From a virus, in UHGV virus genome UHGV-0122054: a DNA stretch of 32,224 bases, one strand, 5' to 3'. The translations under genes and the position numbers were made by a program. The notes under the pieces were generated by a model, which saw only the letters and a program-made list of their open reading frames with translations, did not search any database and was not told the origin of the DNA. This document shows, one piece after another, positions 3,172 to 23,270 of this stretch. The first letter of the stretch is position 1. Each line of letters opens with the position of its first letter.

Positions 3172-3996
3172 ATGGATAATTCAGTGTTACCGCAGGCGCG
3201 GATACTGCGCCATGTTAAATCCTGCCAGTGGCCACACGGCGATTATCACCACAGTGAAACCGTCATTCACCGTTATGGTACCGGCGCAATGGTGTTGTGC
3301 TGGCACTGCGACAACCAGCTGCGCGACCAGACCTCCGAATCACTCGGGCAACTTGCTCACCAAAACCTGTCTGCATGGATGATTGACGTCATACGCCATG
3401 CAATGAATGGCTCGCAGGAACGGGAATTATCGCTGGCTGAATTATCCTGGTGGGCGGTCCGCAATCAGGTGGCGGACGCGCTACCGGAAGCGGTATTACG
3501 TCGTTCGCTGGGGTTGCGTGCGGAAAAAATCCGCTCAATGTACCGTGAAAGCGACATCGTACCGGGAGAGCAGACCGCCACCAGCATACTGAAACAGCGC
3601 ACAAAAAATCTTGCGCCGCTGCCTCACGCCCACCAGCAACAGAACCCACCACAGGAAAAGACGGTGGTCAGCATTGCCGTTGATCCTGAGTCTCCGGAAT
3701 CTTTCATGAAACGACCTAAACGTCGCCGCTGGGTTAACGAGAAATACACTCGCTGGGTGAAGACACAGCCGTGTGCGTGTTGTGGTAAGCCAGCCGACGA
3801 TCCCCATCACCTGATTGGTCATGGTCAGGGCGGAATGGGGACAAAATCTCACGATATTTTCACGCTACCGCTGTGTCGGGAGCATCACAACGAGTTTCAT
3901 GCGAATCCGCTGGCGTTCGAAGAAAAGCATGGTTCTCAGGTTGATTTAATTTTTCGTTTTCTTGATCACGCCTTTGCAACTGGCGTGCTTGGGTAA
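3172..3996 (+). CDS. DUF968-like phage protein with C-terminal Cys/His zinc-binding HNH-like motif; 5' boundary uncertain
   Basis: C-terminus CACCGKP...HHLIGHGQGG...LCREHHNEFH typical of YdfU/DUF968-type proteins. Overlapping frame-2 ORF 2915..3382 makes the start ambiguous (see findings). Confidence 0.6.
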   Translation: MDNSVLPQARILRHVKSCQWPHGDYHHSETVIHRYGTGAMVLCWHCDNQLRDQTSESLGQLAHQNLSAWMIDVIRHAMNGSQERELSLAELSWWAVRNQVADALPEAVLRRSLGLRAEKIRSMYRESDIVPGEQTATSILKQRTKNLAPLPHAHQQQNPPQEKTVVSIAVDPESPESFMKRPKRRRWVNEKYTRWVKTQPCACCGKPADDPHHLIGHGQGGMGTKSHDIFTLPLCREHHNEFHANPLAFEEKHGSQVDLIFRFLDHAFATGVLG

Positions 3997-4008: not shown

Positions 4009-4383
4009 ATGCTCATAGATTTGGTTTTACCTTACCCGCCGACGGTGAACACTTACTGGCGACGCCGTGGCAGCACATATTTTATCTCGGAGGAGGGAAA
4101 GCGTTATCGCCGGGCTGTGGCGCTTATTGTTCGCCAGCAGCGGCTGAAATTAAGCCTGTCCGGAAGGCTGGCGATAAAGGTGATTGCAGAGCCACCGGAT
4201 AAGCGTCGTCGCGACCTGGACAATATCCTGAAAGCACCGCTGGATGCGCTGACGCATGCGGGAGTGTTAATGGACGATGAGCAGTTTGATGAAATCAATA
4301 TCGTTCGTGGTCAGCCAGTATCTGGTGGACGTATGGGGGTGAAGATTTACCCCATAATGCATGAAGAGCAGGTCAAAAAATGA
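4009..4383 (+). CDS. rusA: Holliday junction resolvase RusA
   Basis: 124 aa; PYPPTVNTYWRRRG...RRRDLDN...DDEQ pattern matches RusA family; SD AAGAGG upstream. Confidence 0.85.
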   Translation: MLIDLVLPYPPTVNTYWRRRGSTYFISEEGKRYRRAVALIVRQQRLKLSLSGRLAIKVIAEPPDKRRRDLDNILKAPLDALTHAGVLMDDEQFDEINIVRGQPVSGGRMGVKIYPIMHEEQVKK

Positions 4384-5201
4384 AACTGGAAGATTTACCG
4401 AAATACTACTCCCCAAAATCCCCTGGCCTGACCGATGCATCGGCCTCAACGTCAAAAGATGCGCTGAGTATCACTGATGTGATGGCCGCGCAGGGCATGA
4501 CACAGAATCGGGCTGAGATGGGGTTTTCTGCGTTCCTGGGGAAAATGGGCATCAGTATGAATGACAGGGCGCGGGCAACAGAATTACTGGCAGATTATGC
4601 ACTCAGTCGGTGCGATCGTGTGGCGGCGTTGAGAAAACTTCCGGCAGAAATAAAACCGGTAGTGATGCGCATTATGGCTTCGTATGCGTTTGAAGATTAT
4701 GCCCGTAGCGCGGCGAGCAAAAAACAGTGCCCCTGCTGTCACGGAAAAAAATTTATTGAAAGCGAGGTTTTTACAAACAAGATCCAGTATCCGGATGGTA
4801 AGCCACCAGTGTGGGCAAAGTGCACAAAAGGCGTGTATCCGTCTTACTGGGAAGAATGGAAAAAAGTCAGGGAGGTGGTAAAAGTTGCCTGTCCGGAGTG
4901 TGGCGGAAAGGGTGAGGTTTCCACCGCCTGTAAGGATTGCCGTGGGCGTGGTGTCGCCATTCATCGTGAAGAGTCGGTAAAACGTGGTATGCCTGTTATC
5001 AGAGATTGCCAGCGTTGTGGTGGTCGTGGCTGTGAAAGGCTGCCATCAACGGAGGCATTTAATGCCATATGCAAAGTGACGAGTGCTATCACGCTTGATA
5101 CGTGGAAAAAATCAGTGAAACGCTTTTACGATACGTTGGTGGTTCGGTTTGACATTGAAGAGGCATGGGCGGAGCGGCAGTTAAAGAGGGTAACGCGATA
5201 G
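4380..5201 (+). CDS. Late-gene antitermination protein Q (QuuQ/Q82-like)
   Basis: N-terminal LPKYYSPKSP and CxxC...CxxC zinc cluster; ATGA overlap with rusA; immediately followed by a PR'-like promoter. Confidence 0.75.
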   Translation: MKLEDLPKYYSPKSPGLTDASASTSKDALSITDVMAAQGMTQNRAEMGFSAFLGKMGISMNDRARATELLADYALSRCDRVAALRKLPAEIKPVVMRIMASYAFEDYARSAASKKQCPCCHGKKFIESEVFTNKIQYPDGKPPVWAKCTKGVYPSYWEEWKKVREVVKVACPECGGKGEVSTACKDCRGRGVAIHREESVKRGMPVIRDCQRCGGRGCERLPSTEAFNAICKVTSAITLDTWKKSVKRFYDTLVVRFDIEEAWAERQLKRVTR

Positions 5202-5775: not shown

Positions 5776-6825
5776 ATGCTTAATACTGTAAAAATATCCA
5801 GTTGTGAGTTAATCAACGCCGACTGCCTGGAATTTATCCGGTCGTTACCCGAAAATTCTGTTGACCTGATAGTCACGGACCCGCCGTACTTTAAAGTGAA
5901 GCCTGAGGGCTGGGATAACCAGTGGAAGGGCGACGATGATTACCTGAAGTGGCTGGACCAGTGTCTGGCGCAGTTCTGGCGGGTGCTGAAACCTGCCGGA
6001 AGTCTTTACCTGTTCTGTGGTCATCGCCTGGCATCTGATATCGAAATCATGATGCGTGAACGCTTCAGTGTGCTGAACCATATTATCTGGGCGAAGCCGT
6101 CCGGACGCTGGAACGGATGCAACAAGGAAAGCCTGCGGGCGTATTTCCCCGCCACAGAGCGCATTCTGTTCGCGGAACATTATCAGGGGCCGTATCGTCC
6201 GAAAGATGCCGGGTATGCGGCGAAGGGCAGTGCACTGAAACAGCATGTGATGGCCCCGCTGATTTCTTACTTTCGTGATGCGCGCGCGGCCCTGGGGATA
6301 ACGGCAAAACAGATTGCAGATGCCACAGGAAAGAAAAACATGGTGTCGCACTGGTTCAGTGCCAGTCAGTGGCAGCTACCGAACGAAAGCGATTATCTGA
6401 AATTACAGTCGCTGTTTGCCCGGGTGGCAGAAGAGAAACATCAGCGCGGTGAACTGGAAAAGCCCCACCACCAGCTGGTGGATACGTATACGTCACTGAA
6501 CCGGCAGTATGTGGAGCTGCAGAGTGAATATAAGCATCTGCGGCGGTATTTTGGTGTGACGGCGCAGGTGCCGTACACGGATGTGTGGACACATAAACCG
6601 GTGCAGTTCTATCCCGGGAAACATCCGTGCGAAAAACCGGCAGAAATGCTGCAGCAGATAATCAGCGCAAGCAGTCGTCCGGGTGACCTGGTTGCAGATT
6701 TTTTTATGGGCTCAGGTTCAACGGTAAAAGCGGCACTGGCGCTCGGGCGTCGTGCGATTGGCGTTGAACTGGAGACCGGACGTTTTGAGCAGACAGTCAG
6801 GGAAGTTCAGGATTTAATCGTTTGA
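5776..6825 (+). CDS. N6-adenine DNA methyltransferase (orphan)
   Basis: N-terminal ...DLIVTDPPY (DPPY motif) and FxGSGST AdoMet-binding motif near the C-terminus; no adjacent restriction gene. Confidence 0.85.
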   Translation: MLNTVKISSCELINADCLEFIRSLPENSVDLIVTDPPYFKVKPEGWDNQWKGDDDYLKWLDQCLAQFWRVLKPAGSLYLFCGHRLASDIEIMMRERFSVLNHIIWAKPSGRWNGCNKESLRAYFPATERILFAEHYQGPYRPKDAGYAAKGSALKQHVMAPLISYFRDARAALGITAKQIADATGKKNMVSHWFSASQWQLPNESDYLKLQSLFARVAEEKHQRGELEKPHHQLVDTYTSLNRQYVELQSEYKHLRRYFGVTAQVPYTDVWTHKPVQFYPGKHPCEKPAEMLQQIISASSRPGDLVADFFMGSGSTVKAALALGRRAIGVELETGRFEQTVREVQDLIV

Positions 6826-6874: not shown

Positions 6875-6950
6875 GGCCCTTTAGCTCAGTGGTGAGAGCG
6901 AGCGACTCATAATCGCCAGGTCGCTGGTTCAAATCCAGCAAGGGCCACCA
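6875..6950 (+). tRNA. tRNA with CAU anticodon (Ile2/lysidine type; ileZ-like of Stx phages)
   Basis: 76 nt; acceptor GGCCCTT/AAGGGCC, D-arm GCTC..GAGC, anticodon loop CTCATAA, T-loop TTCAAAT, CCA end; close to E. coli ileX in my recollection. Confidence 0.85.
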
Positions 6951-6957
6951 TCACATA

Positions 6958-7034
6958 CCGCCATTAGCTCATCAGGAAAGAGCGCCAGCCTTCGAAGCTG
7001 GTTGCGCGGAGTTCGGGTCCCCGAAGGCGGTCCA
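6958..7034 (+). tRNA. tRNA-Arg-like (anticodon UCG), possibly imperfect
   Basis: 77 nt cloverleaf with perfect anticodon stem (CCAGC/GCTGG, loop CTTCGAA), but one mismatch in the acceptor stem (A.A) and one in the T-stem (A.C). Confidence 0.5.
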
Positions 7035-7047
7035 TTATCTGTATCCT

Positions 7048-7124
7048 GCGTTGTTAGCTCAGCCGGACAGAGCAATTGCCTTCTAAGCAATCGGTCACTG
7101 GTTCGAATCCAGTACAACGCGCCA
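7048..7124 (+). tRNA. tRNA-Arg (anticodon UCU; argO/argU-like)
   Basis: 77 nt; acceptor GCGTTGT/ACAACGC, anticodon loop CTTCTAA, T-arm ACTGG-TTCGAAT-CCAGT, CCA end. Confidence 0.85.
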
Positions 7125-7139
7125 CACTTATTTTCCCTG

Positions 7140-7163
7140 GCTCGCTTTTGCGGGCTTTTTTTT
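7140..7163 (+). terminator. Intrinsic terminator after the tRNA cluster
   Basis: GCUCGC-UUUU-GCGGGC hairpin (one G.U) followed by 8 T. Confidence 0.65.
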
Positions 7164-7169
7164 AAATGT

Positions 7170-7383
7170 CTCACAATTCAGGCGGTTGACTGTTGTCTGG
7201 TTTGCGGGGAGTTTGTTAAAAGAAACTGGCATGGTGAATCCCCCTGTGCGGAGGGGCAATCAGCGAGTAGGTATATGGGATAATCGCGGATTCAGGTGCT
7301 GGTACTGAATTCACCGGGAGGCACCCGGCACCATGCAATGGCACATAGCGCCACTCTCCAGCCCCTCTCCGGAGGGGCTTTTC
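7170..7383 (+). ncRNA. Candidate small-RNA module A (non-coding, ends in intrinsic terminator)
   Basis: No credible ORF; hairpin CCCCT-gtgcgg-AGGGG (7240-7256); conserved CACCGGGAGGCACCCGGCACCATG (7312-7335); terminator GCCCCTC-TCCG-GAGGGGC plus TTTT (7361-7383). Homologous to module B. Confidence 0.3.
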
Positions 7384-7573
7384 TGTGCCGGATACATCAC
7401 AGTTTCTGGAACCTTAGGTACTACAGTATCAGTCAGGGTGCTATATTTTCAGATGTGATGAAAGCCTGTCAGCAGGCAGGGCGTATCGGAAATGACCCAG
7501 TAGAGAAAACGTTGACTCAGATACCGGTGCTGAGTTACCGGGAAACCGGCATCACATGACCGCTATCCTTCCA

Positions 7574-7601
7574 GGCCCATCCGCTCCGGTGGGCCTTTTT
7601 A
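7574..7601 (+). terminator. Intrinsic terminator closing an intervening non-coding unit
   Basis: GGCCCA..TGGGCC stem with inner CCG/CGG pairs, followed by TTTTT. Confidence 0.5.
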
Positions 7602-7637
7602 CTGCAGAAAACAGGTTCCCCGTTAAATGCTATGTTG

Positions 7638-14566: not shown

Positions 14567-16224
14567 TACCTGTATGGAGCACAGCCTGCCCGGACTGGGC
14601 AGAGCGCCTGAAAAAGGGGCTGTCGATTATTCCGGATCCGATTTATCCGGACGAGGCCGCACATGCCCTGGCGATTTTTAAACAACTGCGGATTGTGGAT
14701 GCACCTGGTAGCCCGACGTTCGGGGAGTCCTGTGCACCGTGGGTGTTTGACCTGGTGGCGGCCCTGTTTGGCTCCTACGATGCGCAGACCGGTGTACGCC
14801 ATATCAAGGAAGTTTTTATCCTTATCCCCAAGAAAAACTCGAAGTCCACGCTGGCCGCGGGGATCATGATGACTGCACTGTTACTGAACTGGCGGCAGGC
14901 GGCGGGTTACACGATTCTGGCCCCGACTGTGGAGGTGGCGGCCAACGCCTTCAACCCTGCCCGGGATATGGTACGACGTGACGATGATCTGGATGACCTC
15001 TGCCAGGTACAGACCCATATCCGGACCATCACCCACAGGGTGACAGACACCACCCTGAAGGTGGTGGCTGCCGATCCGAATACGGTGTCCGGTATCAAGT
15101 CCGTGGGTACGCTGATTGATGAGTTGTGGCTGTTTGGCAAGCAGTGCAAGGCGGAGGACATGTTACGTGAAGCCATAGGCGGCCTTGCCTCCCGCCCGGA
15201 AGGGTTTGTGGTGTATACGACCACCCAGTCGAATGAACCGCCTGCCGGGGTGTTCAGACAGAAACTGCAGTACGCCCGGGATGTGCGCGACGGCAAAATT
15301 CATGATCCGCACTTTCTGCCGGTGATATTTGAACACCCTCCTGAAATGGTGGAAAGCGGGGCTCACCTGCTGATGGAAAACCTCGCCATGGTCAATCCGA
15401 ATCTCGGCTATTCAGTGGATGAGGCCTTTCTGTACCGGGAGTACCGTAAAGCCCGGGAAGCCGGTGAAGAGACATTCCGGGGGTTCATGTCAAAACACGC
15501 CAATGTGGAAATTGGTCTTGCCCTGCGCTCTGACCGCTGGGCGGGGGCTGATTTCTGGGAAGAGCAGGGCCGTTGTATCAGCCTGGACGATATCCTGCGT
15601 CGTGCTGATGTGGTGACGGTGGGGATTGACGGCGGAGGGCTGGATGATCTGCTGGGGATGTATGTGATTGGGCGTGACCGGGAGACCCGCGAATGGCTGG
15701 GCTGGGGCCATGCCTGGGCGCATGAAACCGCGGTGGTCCGACGGAAGAGCGAGGCGTCCCGGTTTCAGGATCTTGTTGCCTGTGGAGATATGACCATTGT
15801 CCGGCGTGTCGGGGATGACACGGCGGAAGTGGCGGAATATGTGCGTCGCATTCATGAGGCTGAGTTACTGGACCATATCGGTATTGACCCGTCAGGGGTG
15901 GGGCAGATTCTGGATTCACTGGCGGAAGCCGGGATCCCCGACGGAATTGTGGTGGGGATAAGCCAGGGCTGGAAGCTGGGCGGGGCCATCAAAACCACCG
16001 AGCGCAAACTGGCTGAAGGGGTACTGGTGCATGGTGGCCAGCCCCTGATGGCCTGGTGTGTCGGCAATGCCCGGGTGGAGCCTAAAGGTAACGCCATCCT
16101 TATTACCAAACAGGCCAGCGGACGGGGAAAAATTGACCCGCTGATGGCGCTCTTCAATGCGGTGTCCCTGATGTCCCTGAATCCGGAACCGAAAAAGAAA
16201 GCGTATGAGGTTTTTTTCATATAA
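14563..16224 (+). CDS. Terminase large subunit
   Basis: 553 aa; P-loop ILIPKKNSKST and C-terminal nuclease-type VGIDGGGLDD motif. Confidence 0.9.
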   Translation: MIPVWSTACPDWAERLKKGLSIIPDPIYPDEAAHALAIFKQLRIVDAPGSPTFGESCAPWVFDLVAALFGSYDAQTGVRHIKEVFILIPKKNSKSTLAAGIMMTALLLNWRQAAGYTILAPTVEVAANAFNPARDMVRRDDDLDDLCQVQTHIRTITHRVTDTTLKVVAADPNTVSGIKSVGTLIDELWLFGKQCKAEDMLREAIGGLASRPEGFVVYTTTQSNEPPAGVFRQKLQYARDVRDGKIHDPHFLPVIFEHPPEMVESGAHLLMENLAMVNPNLGYSVDEAFLYREYRKAREAGEETFRGFMSKHANVEIGLALRSDRWAGADFWEEQGRCISLDDILRRADVVTVGIDGGGLDDLLGMYVIGRDRETREWLGWGHAWAHETAVVRRKSEASRFQDLVACGDMTIVRRVGDDTAEVAEYVRRIHEAELLDHIGIDPSGVGQILDSLAEAGIPDGIVVGISQGWKLGGAIKTTERKLAEGVLVHGGQPLMAWCVGNARVEPKGNAILITKQASGRGKIDPLMALFNAVSLMSLNPEPKKKAYEVFFI

Positions 16225-16288
16225 CCCTGCTCACCCTGTAACCATCATGAACCGCTGCGGCGGTTTTTTTTATTTTCAGGAGGCTGAT

Positions 16289-18226
16289 GTGACTCTTAAA
16301 CGGGCCTGTTCCCTGCTGACGGTGAAATCCTTCAGTGAGGATGAACGGGTGATCACCGGGATTGCGTCAACGCCTTCTCCGGATCGGGATGGTGACATCC
16401 TGGAGCCGGAGGGGGCGGAGTTTGGCAGTACGATCCCGTTTCTCTGGCAGCATGACCATTCCCGCCCTGTAGGCCAGTGTACGGTGCGTCGGATCAGGGA
16501 AGGGCTGGAAATCACGGCAACACTGGTGAAGCCCGTACCGGATATGCCGTCGCAACTGGCTGCCCGGCTGGATGAGGCATGGGCTGCCATTAAGACCGGG
16601 CTGGTCAGGGGGCTTTCTGTGGGCTTCCGGCCCCATGAATACACTTATCTGGACGGAGGCGGACTGCATTTTCTGCGCTGGGAGCTGATGGAGGTGTCTG
16701 CCGTCACCGTGCCCGCGAATGCGGAATGCACCATCCAGACCATTAAATCTTTCGACCGCCCGTTTTCTGCCGCGTCCGGCAACCGGAAACCGGTGGTGAA
16801 AATCGCATCTTCTGCCGGCGCTTCGGCACAGTCAATAACCTCTTTTCATAAGGAAAAGTCAGCAATGAATACTGGTGAACAGATTAAAAGTTTTGAAAAC
16901 AAGCGTGCGGCGCTGGCAGCCTCCCTTGAGGAGGTCATGACCAAAGCCGCAGAGGAAGGCCGCACACTGGATGTGGAAGAGGAAGAGCACTACGACAACA
17001 CCGCAGCGGAAATCCGTCAGGTGGATGCGCACCTGAAGCGTCTGCGTGAACTGGAAACCAGTAAGGCCGCCACGGCACAGCCGGTGAAACAGGCCGGTAA
17101 CGGGAATGTGGCCACGGTGGCTTCAGCGCCGGTGATCCGTGTTGAGCAGAAACTGGAGAAGGGGATTGGTTTCGCCCGCTTTGCCAAATCACTGGCCGCG
17201 GCTAAAGGTGTCCGCTCTGAAGCCCTGGAAGTGGCCCGTCGTCAGTATCCGGATGACAGCCGTCTGCATCATGTCCTGAAGTCGGCGGTGGGGGCAGGGA
17301 CCACCACGGACCCACAGTGGGCAGGCAGCCTGTCTGAATATCAGGAATATGCGCAGGACTTTATTGATTATCTGCGTCCGCAGACCATTATCGGGCGATT
17401 TGGTCATGGCGGGATCCCGGCACTTCGTCAGGTGCCGTTCAATATTCGCGTGCATGCCCAGGTGTCCGGTGGTGCTGCCGGCTGGGTGGGGCAGGGTAAG
17501 GCCAGACCCCTGACGAAGTTTGATTTTGAATCCATCACCTTCAGTCATGCGAAGGTGGCGGCTATTGCGGTACTGACGGAAGAGCTGATCCGTTTTTCCA
17601 GTCCTGCCGCCGATGCGCTGGTCCGTAATGCACTGGCGGAAGCGGTGGTGGCGCGTCTGGACACAGACTTTGTGGACCCGAAAAAAGCGGCGGTGGCCGA
17701 TGTTTCCCCTGCGTCCATCACCCATGATGTGAAGGGCACGGCATCAACCGGTAACCCGGATACGGATGCGGAAGCCGCGTTTGGTCAGTTTGTGGCAGCA
17801 AACCTGCAGCCCACCGGTGCGGTCTGGCTGATGTCCAGCACAAATGCCCTGGCGCTGTCCATGCGTAAAAATGCGCTGGGTCAGAAGGAATATCCGGACA
17901 TGACCCTGCTTGGCGGCACCTTCCAGGGCCTGCCGGTGATTGTCTCCCAGTACGTGGGTGACCAGCTGGTGCTGGTGAATGCGCCGGATATTTATCTGGC
18001 TGATGACGGCGGTGTGGCGGTGGATATGTCCCGTGAAGCGTCACTGGAGATGCAGTCTGAACCGACCAGCGACAGCAGCACACCGTCACCGGTGGAGCTG
18101 GTCTCCATGTTCCAGACCGGCAGCGTGGCCATCCGTGCGGAGCGCTGGATCAACTGGCGTCGTCGCCGTACCGCGGCAGTGGCGGTGATCACCGGTGTGA
18201 ACTACGGAACTGCGTCCGGCGGCTGA
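16289..18226 (+). CDS. Prohead protease fused to HK97-fold major capsid protein
   Basis: Track ORF 16205..18226; preferred GTG 16289 after AGGAGG; N-terminal part resembles HK97 prohead protease, C-terminal part aligns with the HK97 major capsid protein pattern. Confidence 0.7.
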   Translation: MTLKRACSLLTVKSFSEDERVITGIASTPSPDRDGDILEPEGAEFGSTIPFLWQHDHSRPVGQCTVRRIREGLEITATLVKPVPDMPSQLAARLDEAWAAIKTGLVRGLSVGFRPHEYTYLDGGGLHFLRWELMEVSAVTVPANAECTIQTIKSFDRPFSAASGNRKPVVKIASSAGASAQSITSFHKEKSAMNTGEQIKSFENKRAALAASLEEVMTKAAEEGRTLDVEEEEHYDNTAAEIRQVDAHLKRLRELETSKAATAQPVKQAGNGNVATVASAPVIRVEQKLEKGIGFARFAKSLAAAKGVRSEALEVARRQYPDDSRLHHVLKSAVGAGTTTDPQWAGSLSEYQEYAQDFIDYLRPQTIIGRFGHGGIPALRQVPFNIRVHAQVSGGAAGWVGQGKARPLTKFDFESITFSHAKVAAIAVLTEELIRFSSPAADALVRNALAEAVVARLDTDFVDPKKAAVADVSPASITHDVKGTASTGNPDTDAEAAFGQFVAANLQPTGAVWLMSSTNALALSMRKNALGQKEYPDMTLLGGTFQGLPVIVSQYVGDQLVLVNAPDIYLADDGGVAVDMSREASLEMQSEPTSDSSTPSPVELVSMFQTGSVAIRAERWINWRRRRTAAVAVITGVNYGTASGG

Positions 18227-18270: not shown

Positions 18271-18492
18271 ATGGCAAAAATCCAGTATCTGCAGGGCACG
18301 CATGATGCCCGGGCCGGGGATATCCGTGATGTGGCACAGCCGTGTGCGGAGGTGCTGGTTCGCCTGGGGAAGGCGGAGTACATCACAGTGCGACGTCCGG
18401 CAGGTCAGAAAAAGAAACGTGATGCGGAGCATGGCGAATGTGGAACCTTTTGCGGCGAACCCGAAAAAACCAGAAATCAGGACGTGATGTAA
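18271..18492 (+). CDS. Hypothetical small head-module protein (73 aa)
   Basis: ORF between capsid and portal genes in the same orientation; overlaps the portal start; no recognised domain. Confidence 0.3.
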   Translation: MAKIQYLQGTHDARAGDIRDVAQPCAEVLVRLGKAEYITVRRPAGQKKKRDAEHGECGTFCGEPEKTRNQDVM

Positions 18493-19802
18493 AAGAGGTG
18501 GGCTGGACCAGCCTGTTTCAGGCGGTGGCTGAGCCTTTTGCCGGTGCCTGGCAGCAGGGTGTGAAAGCCGATCCGGAAACCGTTTTGTCCTTTCACGCGG
18601 TGTTTTCTTGCATTTCGCTGATATCCCAGGATATCGCCAAAATGCGGCTGCGCCTGATGCAGACCGATACACAGGGGATCCGCCGTGAAAAACGACAGGG
18701 GGATATTGCCCGTCTCTGTCGTCGTCCCAATGCACAGCAGAATCGTATCCAGTTTTTTGAACTGTGGCTGAACGCCAAACTGCGTCACGGCAATACGGTG
18801 GTGCTGAAAATCCGTAACTCCCGGGGGCAGATCAAAGAACTGCGTATTCTGGACTGGAGCCGGGTTGAACCTCTGGTGGCGGATGACGGCGAGGTGTTCT
18901 ATCGCATTACACCGGACCGGAACTGCGGGATCACTGAGGCGGTGACGGTGCCTGCCAGGGAAGTGATCCACGACCGGTTTAACTGTTTTTTTCATCCGCT
19001 TGTGGGGCTGCCGCCGGTGTATGCTGCCGGGCTGGCGGCCACGCAGGGGCATCATATTCAGGAAAATTCGACGTCTTTTTTCAGAAATGGCGGCAGGCCG
19101 TCCGGGGTGATTGAGATCCCCGGCAGTATTACGGAAGAAAATGCGAAAAAACTGAAGAGCAACTGGGACAGCGGGTATACAGGCGAAAATGCGGGGAAAA
19201 CGGCCATTCTGAGCAACGGGGCAAAATACAACCCCACGACGTTTTCACCGGTGGATGCGCAGACGGTGGAACAACTGAAGATGACCGCTGAAATTGTCTG
19301 TTCGGTGTTCCGTGTCCCGGCCTACAAGATTGGCGTGGGACAACCGCCTTCCAGTGACAACGTGGAGGCGCTGGAGCAGCAGTATTATTCCCAGTGCCTG
19401 CAGACGCTGATTGAGTCCATTGAACTGTTACTGGATGAGGCGCTGGAAACGGGGGAAAACGAGAGTACAGAATTTGATGTCACCACGCTGCTGAGAATGG
19501 ACAGTGAGCGGCGCATGAAAACGCTGGGGGATGCGGTGAAAAATACGCTTCTCACGCCCAATGAGGCCCGTAAACGGGAGAACCTGCCGCCTCTGGCCGG
19601 CGGTGATGCACTGTATCTTCAGCAGCAGAACTACAGTCTGGAGGCGCTGTCCCGTCGTGATGCCCGTGAGGATCCGTTCGCGTCGACCGGGAAAACAGTT
19701 TCATCACAGCTGCCTGACGGCGCATCTGACGGTAATAAGGCCATAAGCGAAACAGAGCGTGATGCGGTGAAGGCGATGTTCAGGGGGATACTGCGAAAAT
19801 GA
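18438..19802 (+). CDS. Portal protein (HK97-family type)
   Basis: 454 aa; FFRNGGRPSGVIEIPG and NWDSGYTGENAGKTAILSNGAKY resemble portal-family motifs; acidic C-terminus. Confidence 0.65.
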   Translation: MWNLLRRTRKNQKSGRDVKEVGWTSLFQAVAEPFAGAWQQGVKADPETVLSFHAVFSCISLISQDIAKMRLRLMQTDTQGIRREKRQGDIARLCRRPNAQQNRIQFFELWLNAKLRHGNTVVLKIRNSRGQIKELRILDWSRVEPLVADDGEVFYRITPDRNCGITEAVTVPAREVIHDRFNCFFHPLVGLPPVYAAGLAATQGHHIQENSTSFFRNGGRPSGVIEIPGSITEENAKKLKSNWDSGYTGENAGKTAILSNGAKYNPTTFSPVDAQTVEQLKMTAEIVCSVFRVPAYKIGVGQPPSSDNVEALEQQYYSQCLQTLIESIELLLDEALETGENESTEFDVTTLLRMDSERRMKTLGDAVKNTLLTPNEARKRENLPPLAGGDALYLQQQNYSLEALSRRDAREDPFASTGKTVSSQLPDGASDGNKAISETERDAVKAMFRGILRK

Positions 19803-21022
19803 CAGAGCGTGAACTGTCCATTATCCGTGCGCTGGGTGAAGAATTCGCCACGGTGCTGGCGGATTTACAGCGCACATTTGAGGAGAAGATGGCCGCACAG
19901 TCGGGGGCGTTTGAAGAGAAACTGGCTTCCCTGTCTGCTCTGTTACAGAAGCATGTGACGGTGGATGAGGTGCGCCCTGTTCTGCAGGCGATGATGAATG
20001 ACGCCGTGGGGGCCATTCCGGTACCGCGCGATGGTCGTGATTATGATCCGGAGGTGCTGCAGCAGGCGGTGAATGATGCGGTCGCGAAAATACCGGTACC
20101 GGCGGACGGTAAAAGTGTCACTGCGGATGATGTACGCCCGATGATCGAGCAGATGGTGAAGGACGCAGTGAGTCATATCCCTGCTCCGCGCGATGGTCGT
20201 GATTATGATCCGGAGGTGCTGCAGCAGGCGGTGAATGATGCGGTCGCGAAAATACCGGTACCGGCGGACGGTAAAAGTGTCACTGCGGATGATGTACGCC
20301 CGATGATCGAGCAGATGGTGAAGGACGCAGTGAGTCATATCCCTGCTCCGCGCGATGGTCGTGATTATGATCCGGAGGTGCTGCTGAGGGCGGTGAATGA
20401 CGCTGTCGGAAAACTTCCGGTACCGGCAGATGGAAAAAGTATCACACCGGATGATGTGCGTCCGATGCTCGAGCAGATGGTGACGGATGCCGTGAGTCAT
20501 ATCCCCGTTCCGCGCGACGGTCGTGACTACGATCCGGAAGTTCTGCAGAAGGCGGTTCTGGATGCGGTGAGTGCCCTGCCGGCTCCACAGGACGGGCGTG
20601 ATGCTACGGCACTGGAAATATTCCCGGCGATTGATGAGCAAAAATCCTTTCCCCGGGGCACGTATGCCACACACCAGGGCGGACTCTGGCGGGCGTATGA
20701 AAAAACGCACGGGATGCGGGGATGGGAATGCCTGGTTGACGGGGTGGCCGATATTGACGTCAGCATGACCGGCGAACGGTCGTTCACTGTGGTGGTCCGG
20801 CAGAGCAGTGGCCAGTGTACGGAAAAAACATTTTCCCTGCCGGTGATGCTCTATCGCGGTGTATTCAGAACCGGCGAAACCTACCACCCCGGCGATACGG
20901 TGACGTGGGGGGGCTCGCTGTGGCACTGCAACAGCATGACCGGTGATAAACCCGGAGAAGCTCATTCATCAGGCTGGACCCTGGCTGCAAAACGAGGGCG
21001 GGATGCAGGAGGTGGAAAGTGA
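19799..21022 (+). CDS. Repeat-containing head-module protein of unknown function
   Basis: 407 aa; ATGA coupling to portal; contains 54-aa tandem repeats (IPxPRDGRDYDPEVLQQAVNDAV...). Confidence 0.6.
   Translation: MTERELSIIRALGEEFATVLADLQRTFEEKMAAQSGAFEEKLASLSALLQKHVTVDEVRPVLQAMMNDAVGAIPVPRDGRDYDPEVLQQAVNDAVAKIPVPADGKSVTADDVRPMIEQMVKDAVSHIPAPRDGRDYDPEVLQQAVNDAVAKIPVPADGKSVTADDVRPMIEQMVKDAVSHIPAPRDGRDYDPEVLLRAVNDAVGKLPVPADGKSITPDDVRPMLEQMVTDAVSHIPVPRDGRDYDPEVLQKAVLDAVSALPAPQDGRDATALEIFPAIDEQKSFPRGTYATHQGGLWRAYEKTHGMRGWECLVDGVADIDVSMTGERSFTVVVRQSSGQCTEKTFSLPVMLYRGVFRTGETYHPGDTVTWGGSLWHCNSMTGDKPGEAHSSGWTLAAKRGRDAGGGK
20024..20509 (+). repeat. Three tandem 162-bp in-frame coding repeats (copies 1 and 2 identical)
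   Basis: Copies at 20024-20185 and 20186-20347 are identical by direct comparison; copy 3 (20348-20509) diverged; a partial fourth copy follows. Confidence 0.85.
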
Positions 21023-21345
21023 CAGCATTACTGACACTGGAAGAAATCAAGGCTCATCTGCGTGTTGACCATGACGCGGATGATGACATGCTGATGGACA
21101 AGGTTCGTCAGGCTACAGCTGTGCTGCTGGCCTACATTCAGGGCAGCCGGGATAAGGTAATCCGTGAGGACGGTGAACTGATCCCGGGCGAGGCATTAAC
21201 CCGGATGAAGGGGGCTGCCATGCGCCTGACCGGGATGTTGTACCGGAATCCGGATCTTGCGGAGCGGGAAGACCTCGTGCAGGGGGAACTGCCGTTTTCT
21301 GTGTCCGTGCTGATTTACGATTTGCGTTGTCCGACGGTGTTATGA
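21019..21345 (+). CDS. Head-tail connector protein (gp6-like)
   Basis: 108 aa; ATGA coupling to upstream gene; N-terminus LTLEEIKAHLRVDHDADDD typical of this family. Confidence 0.65.
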   Translation: MTALLTLEEIKAHLRVDHDADDDMLMDKVRQATAVLLAYIQGSRDKVIREDGELIPGEALTRMKGAAMRLTGMLYRNPDLAEREDLVQGELPFSVSVLIYDLRCPTVL

Positions 21346-21356
21346 GGAGGGGGGGG

Positions 21357-21707
21357 ATGGCAATATCTGCAGGTCGTCTGACACAGATGATAAGTGTTCT
21401 GAACCCGGTGTTAACCCGTAATGCTGCCGGAGAAATGACGGAAGAGTGGGTGTCATGCGGGAAAATTCATGCGGATATCCGGGGCAGGAGCAGCCGGGAG
21501 CGGATGCAGTCCGGTGCGGAAATGGCTCAGGCGGAAATCCGCATCTGGGTGCGCGGTCAGTCCGGCCGGGAAATCACAGCAGCGTCACGACTTCATGTGC
21601 TGAGTGGTCCATGGCGTGACCGGATCCTGAACGTTGTCGGGCTGCCCGTGCCGGATACGACCGGCGGGCGTCTGGAAATTCTCTGTCGGCTGGGAGGGGA
21701 AAAATGA
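21357..21707 (+). CDS. Head closure / head-tail joining protein
   Basis: Track ORF 21327..21707; preferred ATG 21357 directly after GAGGAGGGGGGGG. Confidence 0.55.
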   Translation: MAISAGRLTQMISVLNPVLTRNAAGEMTEEWVSCGKIHADIRGRSSRERMQSGAEMAQAEIRIWVRGQSGREITAASRLHVLSGPWRDRILNVVGLPVPDTTGGRLEILCRLGGEK

Positions 21708-22150
21708 TCGAAACCCTGCTGGATTTTTCGGGGCTGGAGGACATCAGCCGCGATTTGCAGCTTCTGAGTGGTGCGGAAAATAACCGGGTGCTGCGTGAGG
21801 CAACCCGTGCGGGTGCGAATGTGCTGAAAGAAGAAGTGGTGTCACGGGCACCGGTACGCAGGGGAAAACTGCGCCGCAATGTGGTGATCCTTTCCCGGCG
21901 CTCCCGCGATGGCGGGATGGAATCCGGTGTCCATATCCGTGGTGTTAATCCGGACACCGGTAACAGCGATAACACCATGAAGGCGGATAACCCGCGCAAT
22001 GCTTTCTACTGGCGGTTTGTGGAAATGGGGACCGTGAATATGCCACCGCACCCGTTTGTGCGCCCGGCGTTTGATGTGCGCAGTGAACAGGCAGCTCAGG
22101 TGGCGATTGCGCGGATGAACCGGGCCATTGATGAGGTACTGAGACGATGA
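21704..22150 (+). CDS. Tail component (HK97 gp10-like)
   Basis: 148 aa; ATGA coupling; conserved ...FYWRFVEMGT...HPFVRPAF... region. Confidence 0.65.
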   Translation: MIETLLDFSGLEDISRDLQLLSGAENNRVLREATRAGANVLKEEVVSRAPVRRGKLRRNVVILSRRSRDGGMESGVHIRGVNPDTGNSDNTMKADNPRNAFYWRFVEMGTVNMPPHPFVRPAFDVRSEQAAQVAIARMNRAIDEVLRR

Positions 22151-22491
22151 CGGAGGCGGATTTGTATCCTCATCTGGCGCATCTTGCCGGCGGGCAGGTG
22201 TACCCGTATGTGGTCCCCCTGCTGGATGGCAGGCCGTCGGTGGCGCTTCCGTGGGTGGTTTTCAGCCTGATTTCATCGGTGTCAGCGGACGTGATGGGCG
22301 GGCAGGCGGAGTCCTCAGTGTCGGTGCAGATAGACGTTTATGCCGGGACTGTGACGCAGGCGCGTCAGATACGTCAGGACGCCCGTGAAGCCATAATGCT
22401 GCTGGCCCCGGGATCCGTCAGTGAAATGCAGGACTATATTCCGGAAAACCGCTGTTACCGTGCAACCCTGGAGTTTCAGGTCACGGTGTGA
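22147..22491 (+). CDS. Tail terminator / tail completion protein (tentative)
   Basis: 114 aa; ATGA coupling; position immediately upstream of the major tail gene. Confidence 0.5.
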   Translation: MTEADLYPHLAHLAGGQVYPYVVPLLDGRPSVALPWVVFSLISSVSADVMGGQAESSVSVQIDVYAGTVTQARQIRQDAREAIMLLAPGSVSEMQDYIPENRCYRATLEFQVTV

Positions 22492-22519
22492 CTTTTTCTT
22501 TTTTTCTACAAAACCATAC

Positions 22520-22540
22520 CCCGCCGCGTGCGGGTTTTTT
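22520..22540 (+). terminator. Intrinsic terminator-like hairpin before the major tail gene
   Basis: CCCGC-cgcgt-GCGGG hairpin followed by TTTTTT. Confidence 0.5.
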
Positions 22541-22556
22541 ATTATCAGGAGGCAGA

Positions 22557-23270
22557 ATGTCTGCTTTGTATGAACGCTCACAGCTGACGCAGGTGATGAT
22601 TTCATCTGCCCCGGCGACTGCTGAAACTATGGATAAGGCGGAATATCTGCGCCTGGACTGCACCATCAAGGAAGTCCAGTTCACCGCCGGTCAGAAACAG
22701 GATATTGATGTGACCACGCTCTGCTCCACAGAGCAGGAGAACATCAACGGTCTGGGGGCGTCGTCTGAGATTTCCATGTCGGGTAATTTTTATCTGAATC
22801 AGGCCCAGAACGCCCTGCGTGATGCCTATGACAATGACGCGTTGTATGCGTTTAAGGTGCTGTTTCCGTCCGGTAAGGGCTTTAAATTCCTGGCGGAAGT
22901 GCGTCAGCACACCTGGTCATCCGGTACCAACGGCGTGGTGGCTGCAACGTTCTCACTGCGTCTGAAAGGCAAACCGGTGTCCTTTGTGGTACCGCTGGCG
23001 TTTGTGAAAAATCTGGATAAAACACTTACCGTGAATACCGGTGCGCTGCTGACAATGTCAGTCAGTGCCAACGGGGGAACGCCGCCGTATAAATACGCCT
23101 GGAAGAAGGATGGTCAGCCGGTTGACGGGCAGACGACAGACACCTTCAGTAAGCCAGGTGCGCAGTCCGCTGATGCGGGGAAATATACCTGCGTGGTGAC
23201 CGATTCGGCAGAGAAAGCACAGAGTGTGACGTCTTTTGAATGCACCGTGACAGTGAGCGCAGCCGCCTGA
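22557..23270 (+). CDS. Major tail protein with C-terminal Ig-like domain
   Basis: Track ORF 22488..23270; ATG 22557 after AGGAGG; C-terminal GKYTCVVTD Ig-like motif as in lambda gpV-type proteins. Confidence 0.8.
   Translation: MSALYERSQLTQVMISSAPATAETMDKAEYLRLDCTIKEVQFTAGQKQDIDVTTLCSTEQENINGLGASSEISMSGNFYLNQAQNALRDAYDNDALYAFKVLFPSGKGFKFLAEVRQHTWSSGTNGVVAATFSLRLKGKPVSFVVPLAFVKNLDKTLTVNTGALLTMSVSANGGTPPYKYAWKKDGQPVDGQTTDTFSKPGAQSADAGKYTCVVTDSAEKAQSVTSFECTVTVSAAA

Follow-up and report, generated by a model that had tools for sequence, protein, structure and literature searches.

A perfect 162-bp tandem duplication in a repeat-built gene between the portal and head-tail adaptor genes of an Escherichia coli prophage: probable recent gain of one unit in the stalk of a putative virion fibre

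The repeat gene and its 162-bp array

The stretch of DNA analysed here, referred to as the window, comprised the 32,224 nucleotides of the virus genome UHGV-0122054. Between the genes of an HK97-type portal protein and a gp6-like head-tail adaptor, the list of open reading frames (ORFs) of the window contained a separate gene of 407 amino acids (aa) on the plus strand (19799-21022), which is called the repeat gene in the following and whose middle part was built from 162-bp units, the first two of them identical. On balance, this duplication probably records the recent addition of one 54-aa unit to the stalk of a fibre protein of the virion. The upstream gene (18438-19802, plus strand) encoded a portal of 454 aa recognised by Pfam Phage_portal (E = 1e-81, residues 54-382) and NCBIfam portal_HK97 (E = 2e-106), and the product of the downstream adaptor gene (Ad1, 21019-21345, plus strand) was recognised by Pfam Phage_connect_1 (E = 8e-8) and PHROG 40. 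The stop codon TGA of the portal gene (19800-19802) overlapped the ATG of the repeat gene in the sequence ATGA, and the stop codon of the repeat gene overlapped the start of the adaptor gene (21019). These overlaps make translational coupling of the repeat gene to both neighbours likely.

Repeats in the window were detected with Tandem Repeats Finder and by position-by-position comparison at a period of 162. Tandem Repeats Finder returned a single array at 20024-20556, with a period of 162, 3.3 copies, 92% matches and no indels, on the plus strand like the gene. Copy 1 (20024-20185) and copy 2 (20186-20347) were identical at 162 of 162 positions, in agreement with the earlier note, which had described a perfect tandem duplication. 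The identity ran on to 20384; every base from 20024 to 20222 was the same as the base 162 positions further on, so that 361 bp (20024-20384) were perfectly periodic. Copy 3 (20348-20509) had diverged: 139 of its 162 positions agreed with copy 2, and the codons that differed comprised 11 synonymous and 9 non-synonymous changes. By the end of the array and the register of the protein, the partial fourth unit (20510-20556) was the start of the last A module of the protein (see below), and the repeat register was lost within it. All units were codon-aligned within the ORF. At a period of 81, the identity at the DNA level was at chance level (20-30 of 81 positions), so the relationship between the two halves of the unit is old and detectable only as a protein motif.

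An exact repeat of 162 bp cannot be the product of chance. Long identical repeats are easily misassembled, and several draft contigs carried the allele of the window with one unit fewer; the warning of the earlier note that the array is a likely site of assembly collapse was a fair one. However, the region 19900-20700 (801 nt) was unbroken at 100% identity in all of the 60 complete E. coli genomes that ranked best, including ABU 83972, MCJCHV-1 and an O18:H1 strain, and 71 records were at least 99% identical to it. Since at least 60 independently assembled complete genomes shared the identical three-unit region, the duplication is real and not the misassembly of one genome, and the probability of an assembly artefact is negligible.

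Variation in unit number and selection on the gene

Gene lengths were surveyed in 117 IMG/VR loci and in phage records, and unit identities were scored in 75 genes. Intact genes measured 738, 900, 1062, 1224 (or 1218), 1386, 1548 and 1710 nt, in exact 162-nt steps, and the length varied inside groups whose 825-nt flanks differed by no more than 4 nt. A perfectly identical pair of adjacent units was found in 10 of the 75 genes. Among the genes listed (60 of the 75), every allele with four, five or six units held at least one such pair except L101 (1386 nt), in which adjacent units matched at 156, 146 and 146-147 of 162 positions. The adjacent units matched at 162, 157 and 158 positions in the 1386-nt form (four of the six seen) and at 159, 162, 162 and 162 positions in the 1548-nt form, and the 1710-nt form had one pair at 162. 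Unit gains appear to arise as perfect copies.

DETEC-E1070, a complete genome, carried the window allele minus exactly one unit and differed at 2 positions over about 2.8 kb; the same form occurred in four IMG/VR contigs (L036, L067, L075 and L082), with 1-2 mismatches in 1062 nt. One identity band held 29 complete-genome records, and the one record inspected was the two-unit form. Two-unit forms of other alleles were found in about 5 of 55 sampled records from complete genomes. This two-unit form of the window allele, the 162-nt length series and the identical pairs bore out the suggestion of the earlier note that the duplication was recent or that copy number was still varying. Repeat-built phage fibres are known to gain and lose whole units, and the tandem gain of a unit in the stalk of such a fibre is a familiar kind of event.

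Units of the same gene matched at 154-161 of 162 positions, whereas the units of the window matched those of other phages at 132-142. In 26 distinct three-unit arrays, the mean identity within a gene was 94.8%, and equivalent units were about 90% identical in alleles whose flanks were 89-92% identical. Units were more alike within a gene than between diverged alleles, the pattern that concerted evolution would leave in these sequences. The ratio of non-synonymous to synonymous substitution rates (dN/dS) was calculated for the window against three other alleles (L002, L003 and L005), and it was 0.16-0.34 in the N-terminal region, 0.08-0.14 in the repeats, 0.10-0.17 in the C-terminal domain and 0.10-0.11 in the portal gene. 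With low values like those of the portal gene, the repeat gene is functional and maintained by purifying selection. The synonymous rate in the repeats (20024-20590) was 0.5-0.7, three to five times the 0.13-0.18 of the C-terminal domain and the portal gene. This high rate together with the low dN/dS suggests exchange of units among diverged prophage copies and not simple vertical divergence.

Unequal homologous recombination or replication slippage between the near-identical direct repeats would add or remove whole units, and the same processes would homogenise the units within a gene. The repeat gene was present in 1247 of 5426 complete E. coli genomes, at 6372 places in all, with a median of 3 per genome and at most 24, and exchange among several copies in one chromosome could also homogenise the units. 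The outcome would be a population of alleles that differ in stalk length.

The portal junction and the length of the G run

The repeat ORF, which began at 19799, was in the -1 frame relative to the portal ORF, which ended at 19802. A run of five G residues (G5; 19783-19787, plus strand) was located in the last portal codons, 12 to 16 nt before the start codon of the repeat gene, and may double as the ribosome-binding site (AGGGGG) of this gene. In the alignment of the junctions, the window and loci L001 and L003-L005 all had G5 and two split ORFs, whereas L002 and L006 had six G residues (G6) and one fused ORF; the length of the G run was the sole difference at the junction between the split and fused forms. 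Among the phages, the G5 form with two ORFs was found in the window, JLK-2012, Stx2a_1447 and Stx2_EH2201, and the G6 form with one ORF was found in 2851 and WGPS6. The G6 fusion ORF had 859 aa, or 807 aa in the two-unit form. Of the 117 IMG/VR loci, 76 were G5 and 41 were G6. Diverged groups with G5 were numerous, whereas one near-identical group accounted for 25 of the 41 G6 loci. There were a few small G6 groups besides, and one G5 locus had flanks identical to those of the main G6 group, which showed that the run had changed more than once. Read from these alleles, the G5/G6 run toggles the fusion of the putative fibre to the portal in natural populations.

The junction was also compared in 11 loci from other genera, which were 37-47% identical and came from Phytobacter, Atlantibacter, Enterobacter, Kosakonia, Buttiauxella and Citrobacter, as well as from metagenome bins labelled Atlantibacter, Enterobacter and Chitinophaga. 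In all 11, the homologue of the repeat gene was an ORF of its own beginning with MNERELS, with an in-frame stop codon 5-16 codons upstream. All 11 portals ended in LRGLLTK or a close variant before the stop codon, the TGA overlapped the ATG of the next gene (AAATGAATGAA), and AGAGGA stood in place of the G run at the homologous site. Stand-alone homologues of 290-463 aa were numerous across the Enterobacteriaceae, with length classes of 294, 347, 405 and 463 aa. The portal profiles PF04860 and TIGR01537 had no match in the repeat ORF, and their match was limited to residues 45-388 of the upstream ORF. The 11 split loci, the limits of the portal profiles and the commoner G5 state in many diverged groups together indicate that the two-gene layout of the window is ancestral and that the fused "long portal" arose from it later. 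With a 4-nt overlap, one inserted base is enough to fuse the two genes, so the fusions are weak evidence for an ancestral single gene.

Database labels at this locus were at variance with the two-gene layout. The NCBI Prokaryotic Genome Annotation Pipeline (PGAP) annotated the 99.9% identical locus of MCJCHV-1 as a single "phage portal protein, frameshifted". In PHROG 2271 ("portal protein", 859 positions), the segment 1-451 matched the portal ORF and the segment 455-859 the repeat ORF, and the "portal" matches of PHROGs 2271 and 1289 to the repeat ORF reflect fused or mislabelled members. Stand-alone homologues were named "gp6-like head-tail connector" by NCBI, but PF05135 (Phage_connect_1) had no match in the repeat ORF, and its match lay in the next ORF (21019-21345). 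Both the "frameshifted portal" pseudogene label and the "gp6-like connector" label are most likely wrong. Lacking the defining profile match of each, the repeat protein belongs to none of the three families of portals, gp6-like connectors and Mu F proteins.

A programmed -1 frameshift within the G run was considered and set aside as the less likely reading, as AGG-GGG-AUA is not a canonical X-XXY-YYZ heptamer. Independent initiation is simpler, since an ATG with the ATGA overlap was conserved in all genera. In two metagenome contigs of 115 kb (L140 and L141, 7001-10714), a 1237-aa ORF was composed of an HK97-type portal, a spacer of about 530 aa and the same C-terminal beta domain as in the repeat protein; the two assemblies were independent of each other, and the ORF is unrelated to the G6 alleles of E. 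coli. The G run might also be viewed as a heritable on/off switch, in which G5 would give a free fibre on the virion and G6 an extension of all twelve portal subunits, the fusion product being locked inside the capsid or displayed differently. We regard this switch as rather unlikely.

Architecture, family and possible location of the protein

An alignment of 30 homologues showed a conserved N-terminus, a middle part of variable length and a strongly conserved C-terminus of about 145 residues with about 60 invariant positions. The N-terminus formed a long helix (residues 3-52; 19805-19954, plus strand) in the AlphaFold2 model made with alignment A1, with a predicted local distance difference test score (pLDDT) of 81-87 for residues 1-40. 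Invariant columns were present among the first 16 residues, and the conserved helical region extended over about 70 aa. In the model, this helix is probably an anchor or a region of oligomerisation or trimerisation. The stalk (residues 73-261; 20015-20581, plus strand), as defined by the repeat register, consisted of seven helix-loop modules in the order A-B-A-B-A-B-A. The A module had 25 aa (IPxPRDGRDYDPEVLQQAVNDAVAK) and the B module had 29 aa (IPVPADGKSVTADDVRPMIEQMVKDAVSH), which together gave the 54 aa encoded by 162 nt. Each module was modelled, at low confidence, as a 12-residue loop rich in Pro and Gly followed by a helix of 13-17 residues, and the number of modules differed between relatives. 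The earlier note had described a string of 27/54-aa repeats with a distinct C-terminal domain. The alignment and the models agreed with this arrangement and added the conserved N-terminal region; the 54-aa unit was confirmed, whereas the value of 27 proved approximate for halves of 25 and 29 aa. The structure prediction that it had proposed succeeded for the C-terminal domain but gave low confidence for the stalk.

The C-terminal domain (residues 262-407, 146 aa; 20582-21019, plus strand) contained two motifs resembling those of the carbohydrate-binding module (CBM) families CBM5/12, FPRGTYATHQGGLWRA and YHPGDTVTWGGSLWHC. Its model, built from 145 diverse sequences, was all-beta with a pLDDT of 94.2, and the small beta fold of CBM5/12 (PF02839) was recognisable in the modelled subdomains. 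Foldseek matched the domain to tail fibres of Agrobacterium phage 7-7-1 (E = 1e-3) and to components of the Milano receptor-binding complex; the tail fibre of Pa193 and chitin-binding modules also matched in fold. The best matches in BFVD were phage proteins annotated as "collagen triple helix repeat", CBM5/12 or ChiC-binding-domain proteins. PF02839 was precomputed on many homologues of the window protein, and the relative P0249 scored 28.6 bits against CBM_5_12, above the curated cut-off of 26.2. Pfam PF28083 was likewise precomputed on homologues. By the model, the subdomains would belong to CBM5/12 at the level of the fold, and membership is borderline at the level of the profile; from this fold, they are putatively glycan-binding. 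The NCBIfam scan gave nothing for the repeat ORF and the Pfam scan gave sub-threshold matches only, of which TetR_C_35, DUF4244 and Glycos_trans_3N lay in the helical repeats and were dismissed as noise. Searches of PDB sequences with the protein and two profiles found no solved relative and only weak matches of the CBM5/12 type. Pfam Collagen did not match the window protein, and no G-X-Y run was found by reading its sequence.

A profile of the C-terminal domain matched 6576 cluster representatives at E <= 0.001 and 550 at E <= 1e-30. Among the 150 matches listed, nearly all were 200-500 aa long and ended with this domain. An amphipathic N-terminal helix was common to distant members of the family. 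Many members had G-X-Y runs of up to 49 triplets between this helix and the same C-terminal domain (P0249 matched Pfam Collagen with E = 3e-21), and others had PxPxDG helix-loop repeats as in the window protein. Stalks of the collagen type are trimers, and the simplest reading is therefore that the family consists of trimeric fibres with interchangeable stalks; by analogy with these collagen-stalk homologues only, the window protein is likely a trimer as well. The neighbourhoods of four distant members were looked up, and the three with identifiable neighbours, P0249, P0337 and P0247, were placed between portal and adaptor genes in HK97-like siphophages. The gene order around these three was portal, family gene, Phage_connect_1, HCP, gp10-like, gp17 and tail tube. 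On a short contig (L138, 764-2295), a member with a collagen stalk was preceded by a 182-aa HI1402_helical protein and had no recognisable portal end upstream. To judge from its sequences, this large and uncharacterised family looks like one of accessory glycan-binding fibres.

The repeat protein is accordingly best pictured as a low-copy fibre at the portal vertex or the neck, a place suggested by the position of its gene and its overlaps with the portal and adaptor genes. The N-terminal helix would serve as the anchor, the 25- and 29-aa helix-loop modules would form the stalk, and the distal 146-aa CBM5/12-like beta domain would bind glycans in an accessory adhesion role. The location is the weakest step of this proposal. 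Several results weigh against the proposal as a whole. The full-length model from the 30-sequence alignment was poor (pLDDT 54) and only its N-terminal helix was usable. No structural match in Foldseek spanned the whole C-terminal domain, and the CBM_5_12 match of the window protein reached 20.2 bits, below the curated cut-off. All 60 inspected genomes of the extraintestinal pathogenic E. coli (ExPEC) lineage with the exact allele of the window had three units, so the copy number does not change fast on that time scale, and some two-unit draft contigs may be assembly collapses, yet complete genomes showed both states. Searches of the literature and the PDB turned up neither experimental work nor a virion proteome nor a solved structure for any family member, and no study of the repeat protein was found in the literature on C-terminal extensions of portals, virion proteomics of phage 2851, defective Sakai prophages or collagen-like head and neck fibres. 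The C-terminus of known portals lies inside the capsid, so the recurrent fusions, seen in the 41 G6 loci, in phage 2851 and independently in the 1237-aa metagenomic protein, fit an external fibre poorly. The conflict would disappear if the phages simply tolerate the fusions, if the internal ATG, which the fused forms retain, also gives rise to a free fibre, or if the protein is in fact internal.

The fusions are also the point at which other explanations of the repeat ORF must be weighed. If it were the C-terminal half of a long 859-aa portal, the window would carry a frameshifted and inactive pseudogene, as the PGAP label of the MCJCHV-1 copy and the PHROG 2271 profile spanning both parts imply. 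The uninterrupted ORFs of 2851 and WGPS6, the fused IMG/VR loci and the unrelated fusion in two metagenome assemblies agree with such a portal. However, the relatives from other genera had two genes with the ATGA overlap and no G run, the portal hidden Markov models ended at residue 388 of the upstream ORF, and the split state was the commoner one across diverged groups, with the fused state concentrated in one. The split ORF, moreover, was intact and under purifying selection, and a single base suffices to fuse genes that overlap by 4 nt, which makes a long portal very improbable. The same fusions to the C-terminus of the portal would suit an internal head protein that docks at the crown, on the inner face of the portal, in the manner of SPP1 gp7 and Mu F-type proteins, whose genes also lie immediately downstream of the portal gene; one of the phages with a fusion, 2851, was reportedly found to be viable by Strauch and colleagues in 2008. 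Yet no match to Phage_Mu_F or a comparable family was found in Pfam, PHROGs or NCBIfam, collagen triple-helix stalks and CBM5/12-like end domains typify external fibres, and in fold the closest matches were tail-fibre tips and chitin-binding modules. An internal location of this kind seems improbable.

Some more weight, although still well short of an even chance, is given to a capsid decoration protein or head fibre present in many copies over the shell, like T4 Hoc or the head fibres of phi29. Such a role would be in keeping with a gene in the head block and with an architecture of anchor, spacer and binding domain, and the Ig-like domain of the tail tube protein of the same phage, which matches Hoc-like PHROGs, indicates that surface adhesion domains are used in this virion. 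Against it, the repeat gene is not adjacent to the capsid gene, its overlaps with the portal stop and the adaptor start in every relative examined suggest a low expression like that of the portal, and its repeated joining to the portal speaks for a place at the portal vertex. A scaffolding protein was rejected, since the capsid gene is a protease-capsid fusion and the repeat protein has a beta end domain and collagen-stalk relatives. The suggestion of the earlier note that the protein is a decoration or surface-exposed protein is consistent with the CBM5/12-like end, the collagen-stalk relatives and the tail-fibre-tip folds, but it is not proven.

If the repeat protein is a fibre of the portal vertex or neck, the neck passage structure proteins of lactococcal phages appear to work most like it, the repeat protein being known here from sequence. 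The lactococcal proteins (the collar-whisker proteins of TP901-1, Tuc2009 and phiLC3) are attached at the junction of capsid and tail, are thought to give the first, reversible contact with the host as an ancillary device of adsorption, and are likewise accessory fibres in which an N-terminal anchor is followed by a long trimeric stalk, helical but irregular, and by a carbohydrate-binding module at the far end (PMC9692632). The anchors show no sequence or fold relationship, that of the lactococcal proteins being a BppU-like beta sandwich and that of the repeat protein a helix; the lactococcal binding modules are of other CBM families, and the lactococcal gene follows the receptor-binding protein gene instead of the portal gene. 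T4 fibritin (Wac), a trimeric fibre encoded by a neck gene, has a segmented helical stalk with loops and a small C-terminal beta domain, and is similar in layout to the repeat protein. However, no homology to it was detected in the PDB sequence searches, its end domain is a 30-aa foldon instead of a 146-aa CBM-like domain, and we know of no copy-number polymorphism of this kind for wac. In the collagen-like fibre genes of dairy and other phages, the number of repeats before a conserved end domain changes by recombination. Collagen-repeat fibre genes, including members of the same family, are the closest match for the behaviour of the repeats, although the stalk here is a 54-aa helix-loop double module instead of a G-X-Y stalk, a type that we did not find described. 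In comparison with the CBM5/12 modules of Serratia chitinase B and Streptomyces ChiC, the repeat protein has two such motifs within a larger 146-aa domain. Its likeness to HK97-type portals is limited to adjacency, the stop/start overlap and occasional fusion, whereas it has no portal fold or profile match and is a separate gene in most lineages.

The window as a whole is a lambdoid E. coli prophage of the long-tailed, Stx-phage type without stx genes. A Q antiterminator gene (4380-5201) was followed by a DNA methyltransferase gene (5776-6825) and three transfer RNA (tRNA) genes (Met-type CAT, Arg TCG and Arg TCT; 6875-7124); in Stx phages, the stx genes lie at this position. The roughly 1 kb after the tRNAs (7125-8099) held no ORF longer than 93 aa, which identified the window as an Stx-type prophage lacking stx. 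The codons on either side of the G run in the portal gene, AGG and AUA, are rare ones and presumably of the kind read by such phage tRNAs. The early-late region also contained genes of a Mom-like DNA modification protein (721-1251) and a large HNH endonuclease (3172-3996). Lysis genes (holin, endolysin and spanin; 10029-12685) preceded the genes of the small terminase (13928-14566), the large terminase (14563-16224) and the prohead protease-capsid fusion (16205-18226), and a second HNH gene (13347-13712) lay directly upstream of the small terminase gene. Downstream of the adaptor gene were the head closure, gp10-like and tail terminator genes (21327-22491), the gene of a tail tube protein with an Ig-like domain (22488-23270) and a lambda-like tail module (from 23240). 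The head-closure ORF was listed with a TTG start at 21327, upstream of the PGAP start in L001 (about 21358 in window coordinates). The otherwise near-identical locus of DETEC-E1070 (L144) lost register with the window at about 21345-21360, after the adaptor gene, indicating an indel. The Ig-like domain at the C-terminus of the tail tube protein matched Pfam Ig_3, Ig_2 and I-set besides the Hoc-like PHROGs, and is a further candidate for surface adhesion by this virion, next to that of the repeat protein.

For annotation, the locus offers a correction of labels, a very large unstudied family and a G5/G6 fusion toggle in natural populations. The "frameshifted portal" label could make prophages look defective although their two-gene layout is the conserved one, and the near-identical 162-bp units, added to the multiple copies of the gene in one genome, give rise to misassembly in the genomes of Shiga toxin-producing E. 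coli (STEC) and ExPEC. If the G run were indeed a switch, a very common family of E. coli prophages would have a locus that varies in two dimensions, the presence or absence of the fibre and its length, and a large family of portal-vertex fibres with thousands of sequence clusters would currently be labelled "portal" or "gp6-like". The length of the stalk is a naturally variable parameter, and if the repeat protein is an accessory glycan-binding fibre, it would be a candidate for adhesion to the host surface or to mucus in Stx-type and other lambdoid phages.

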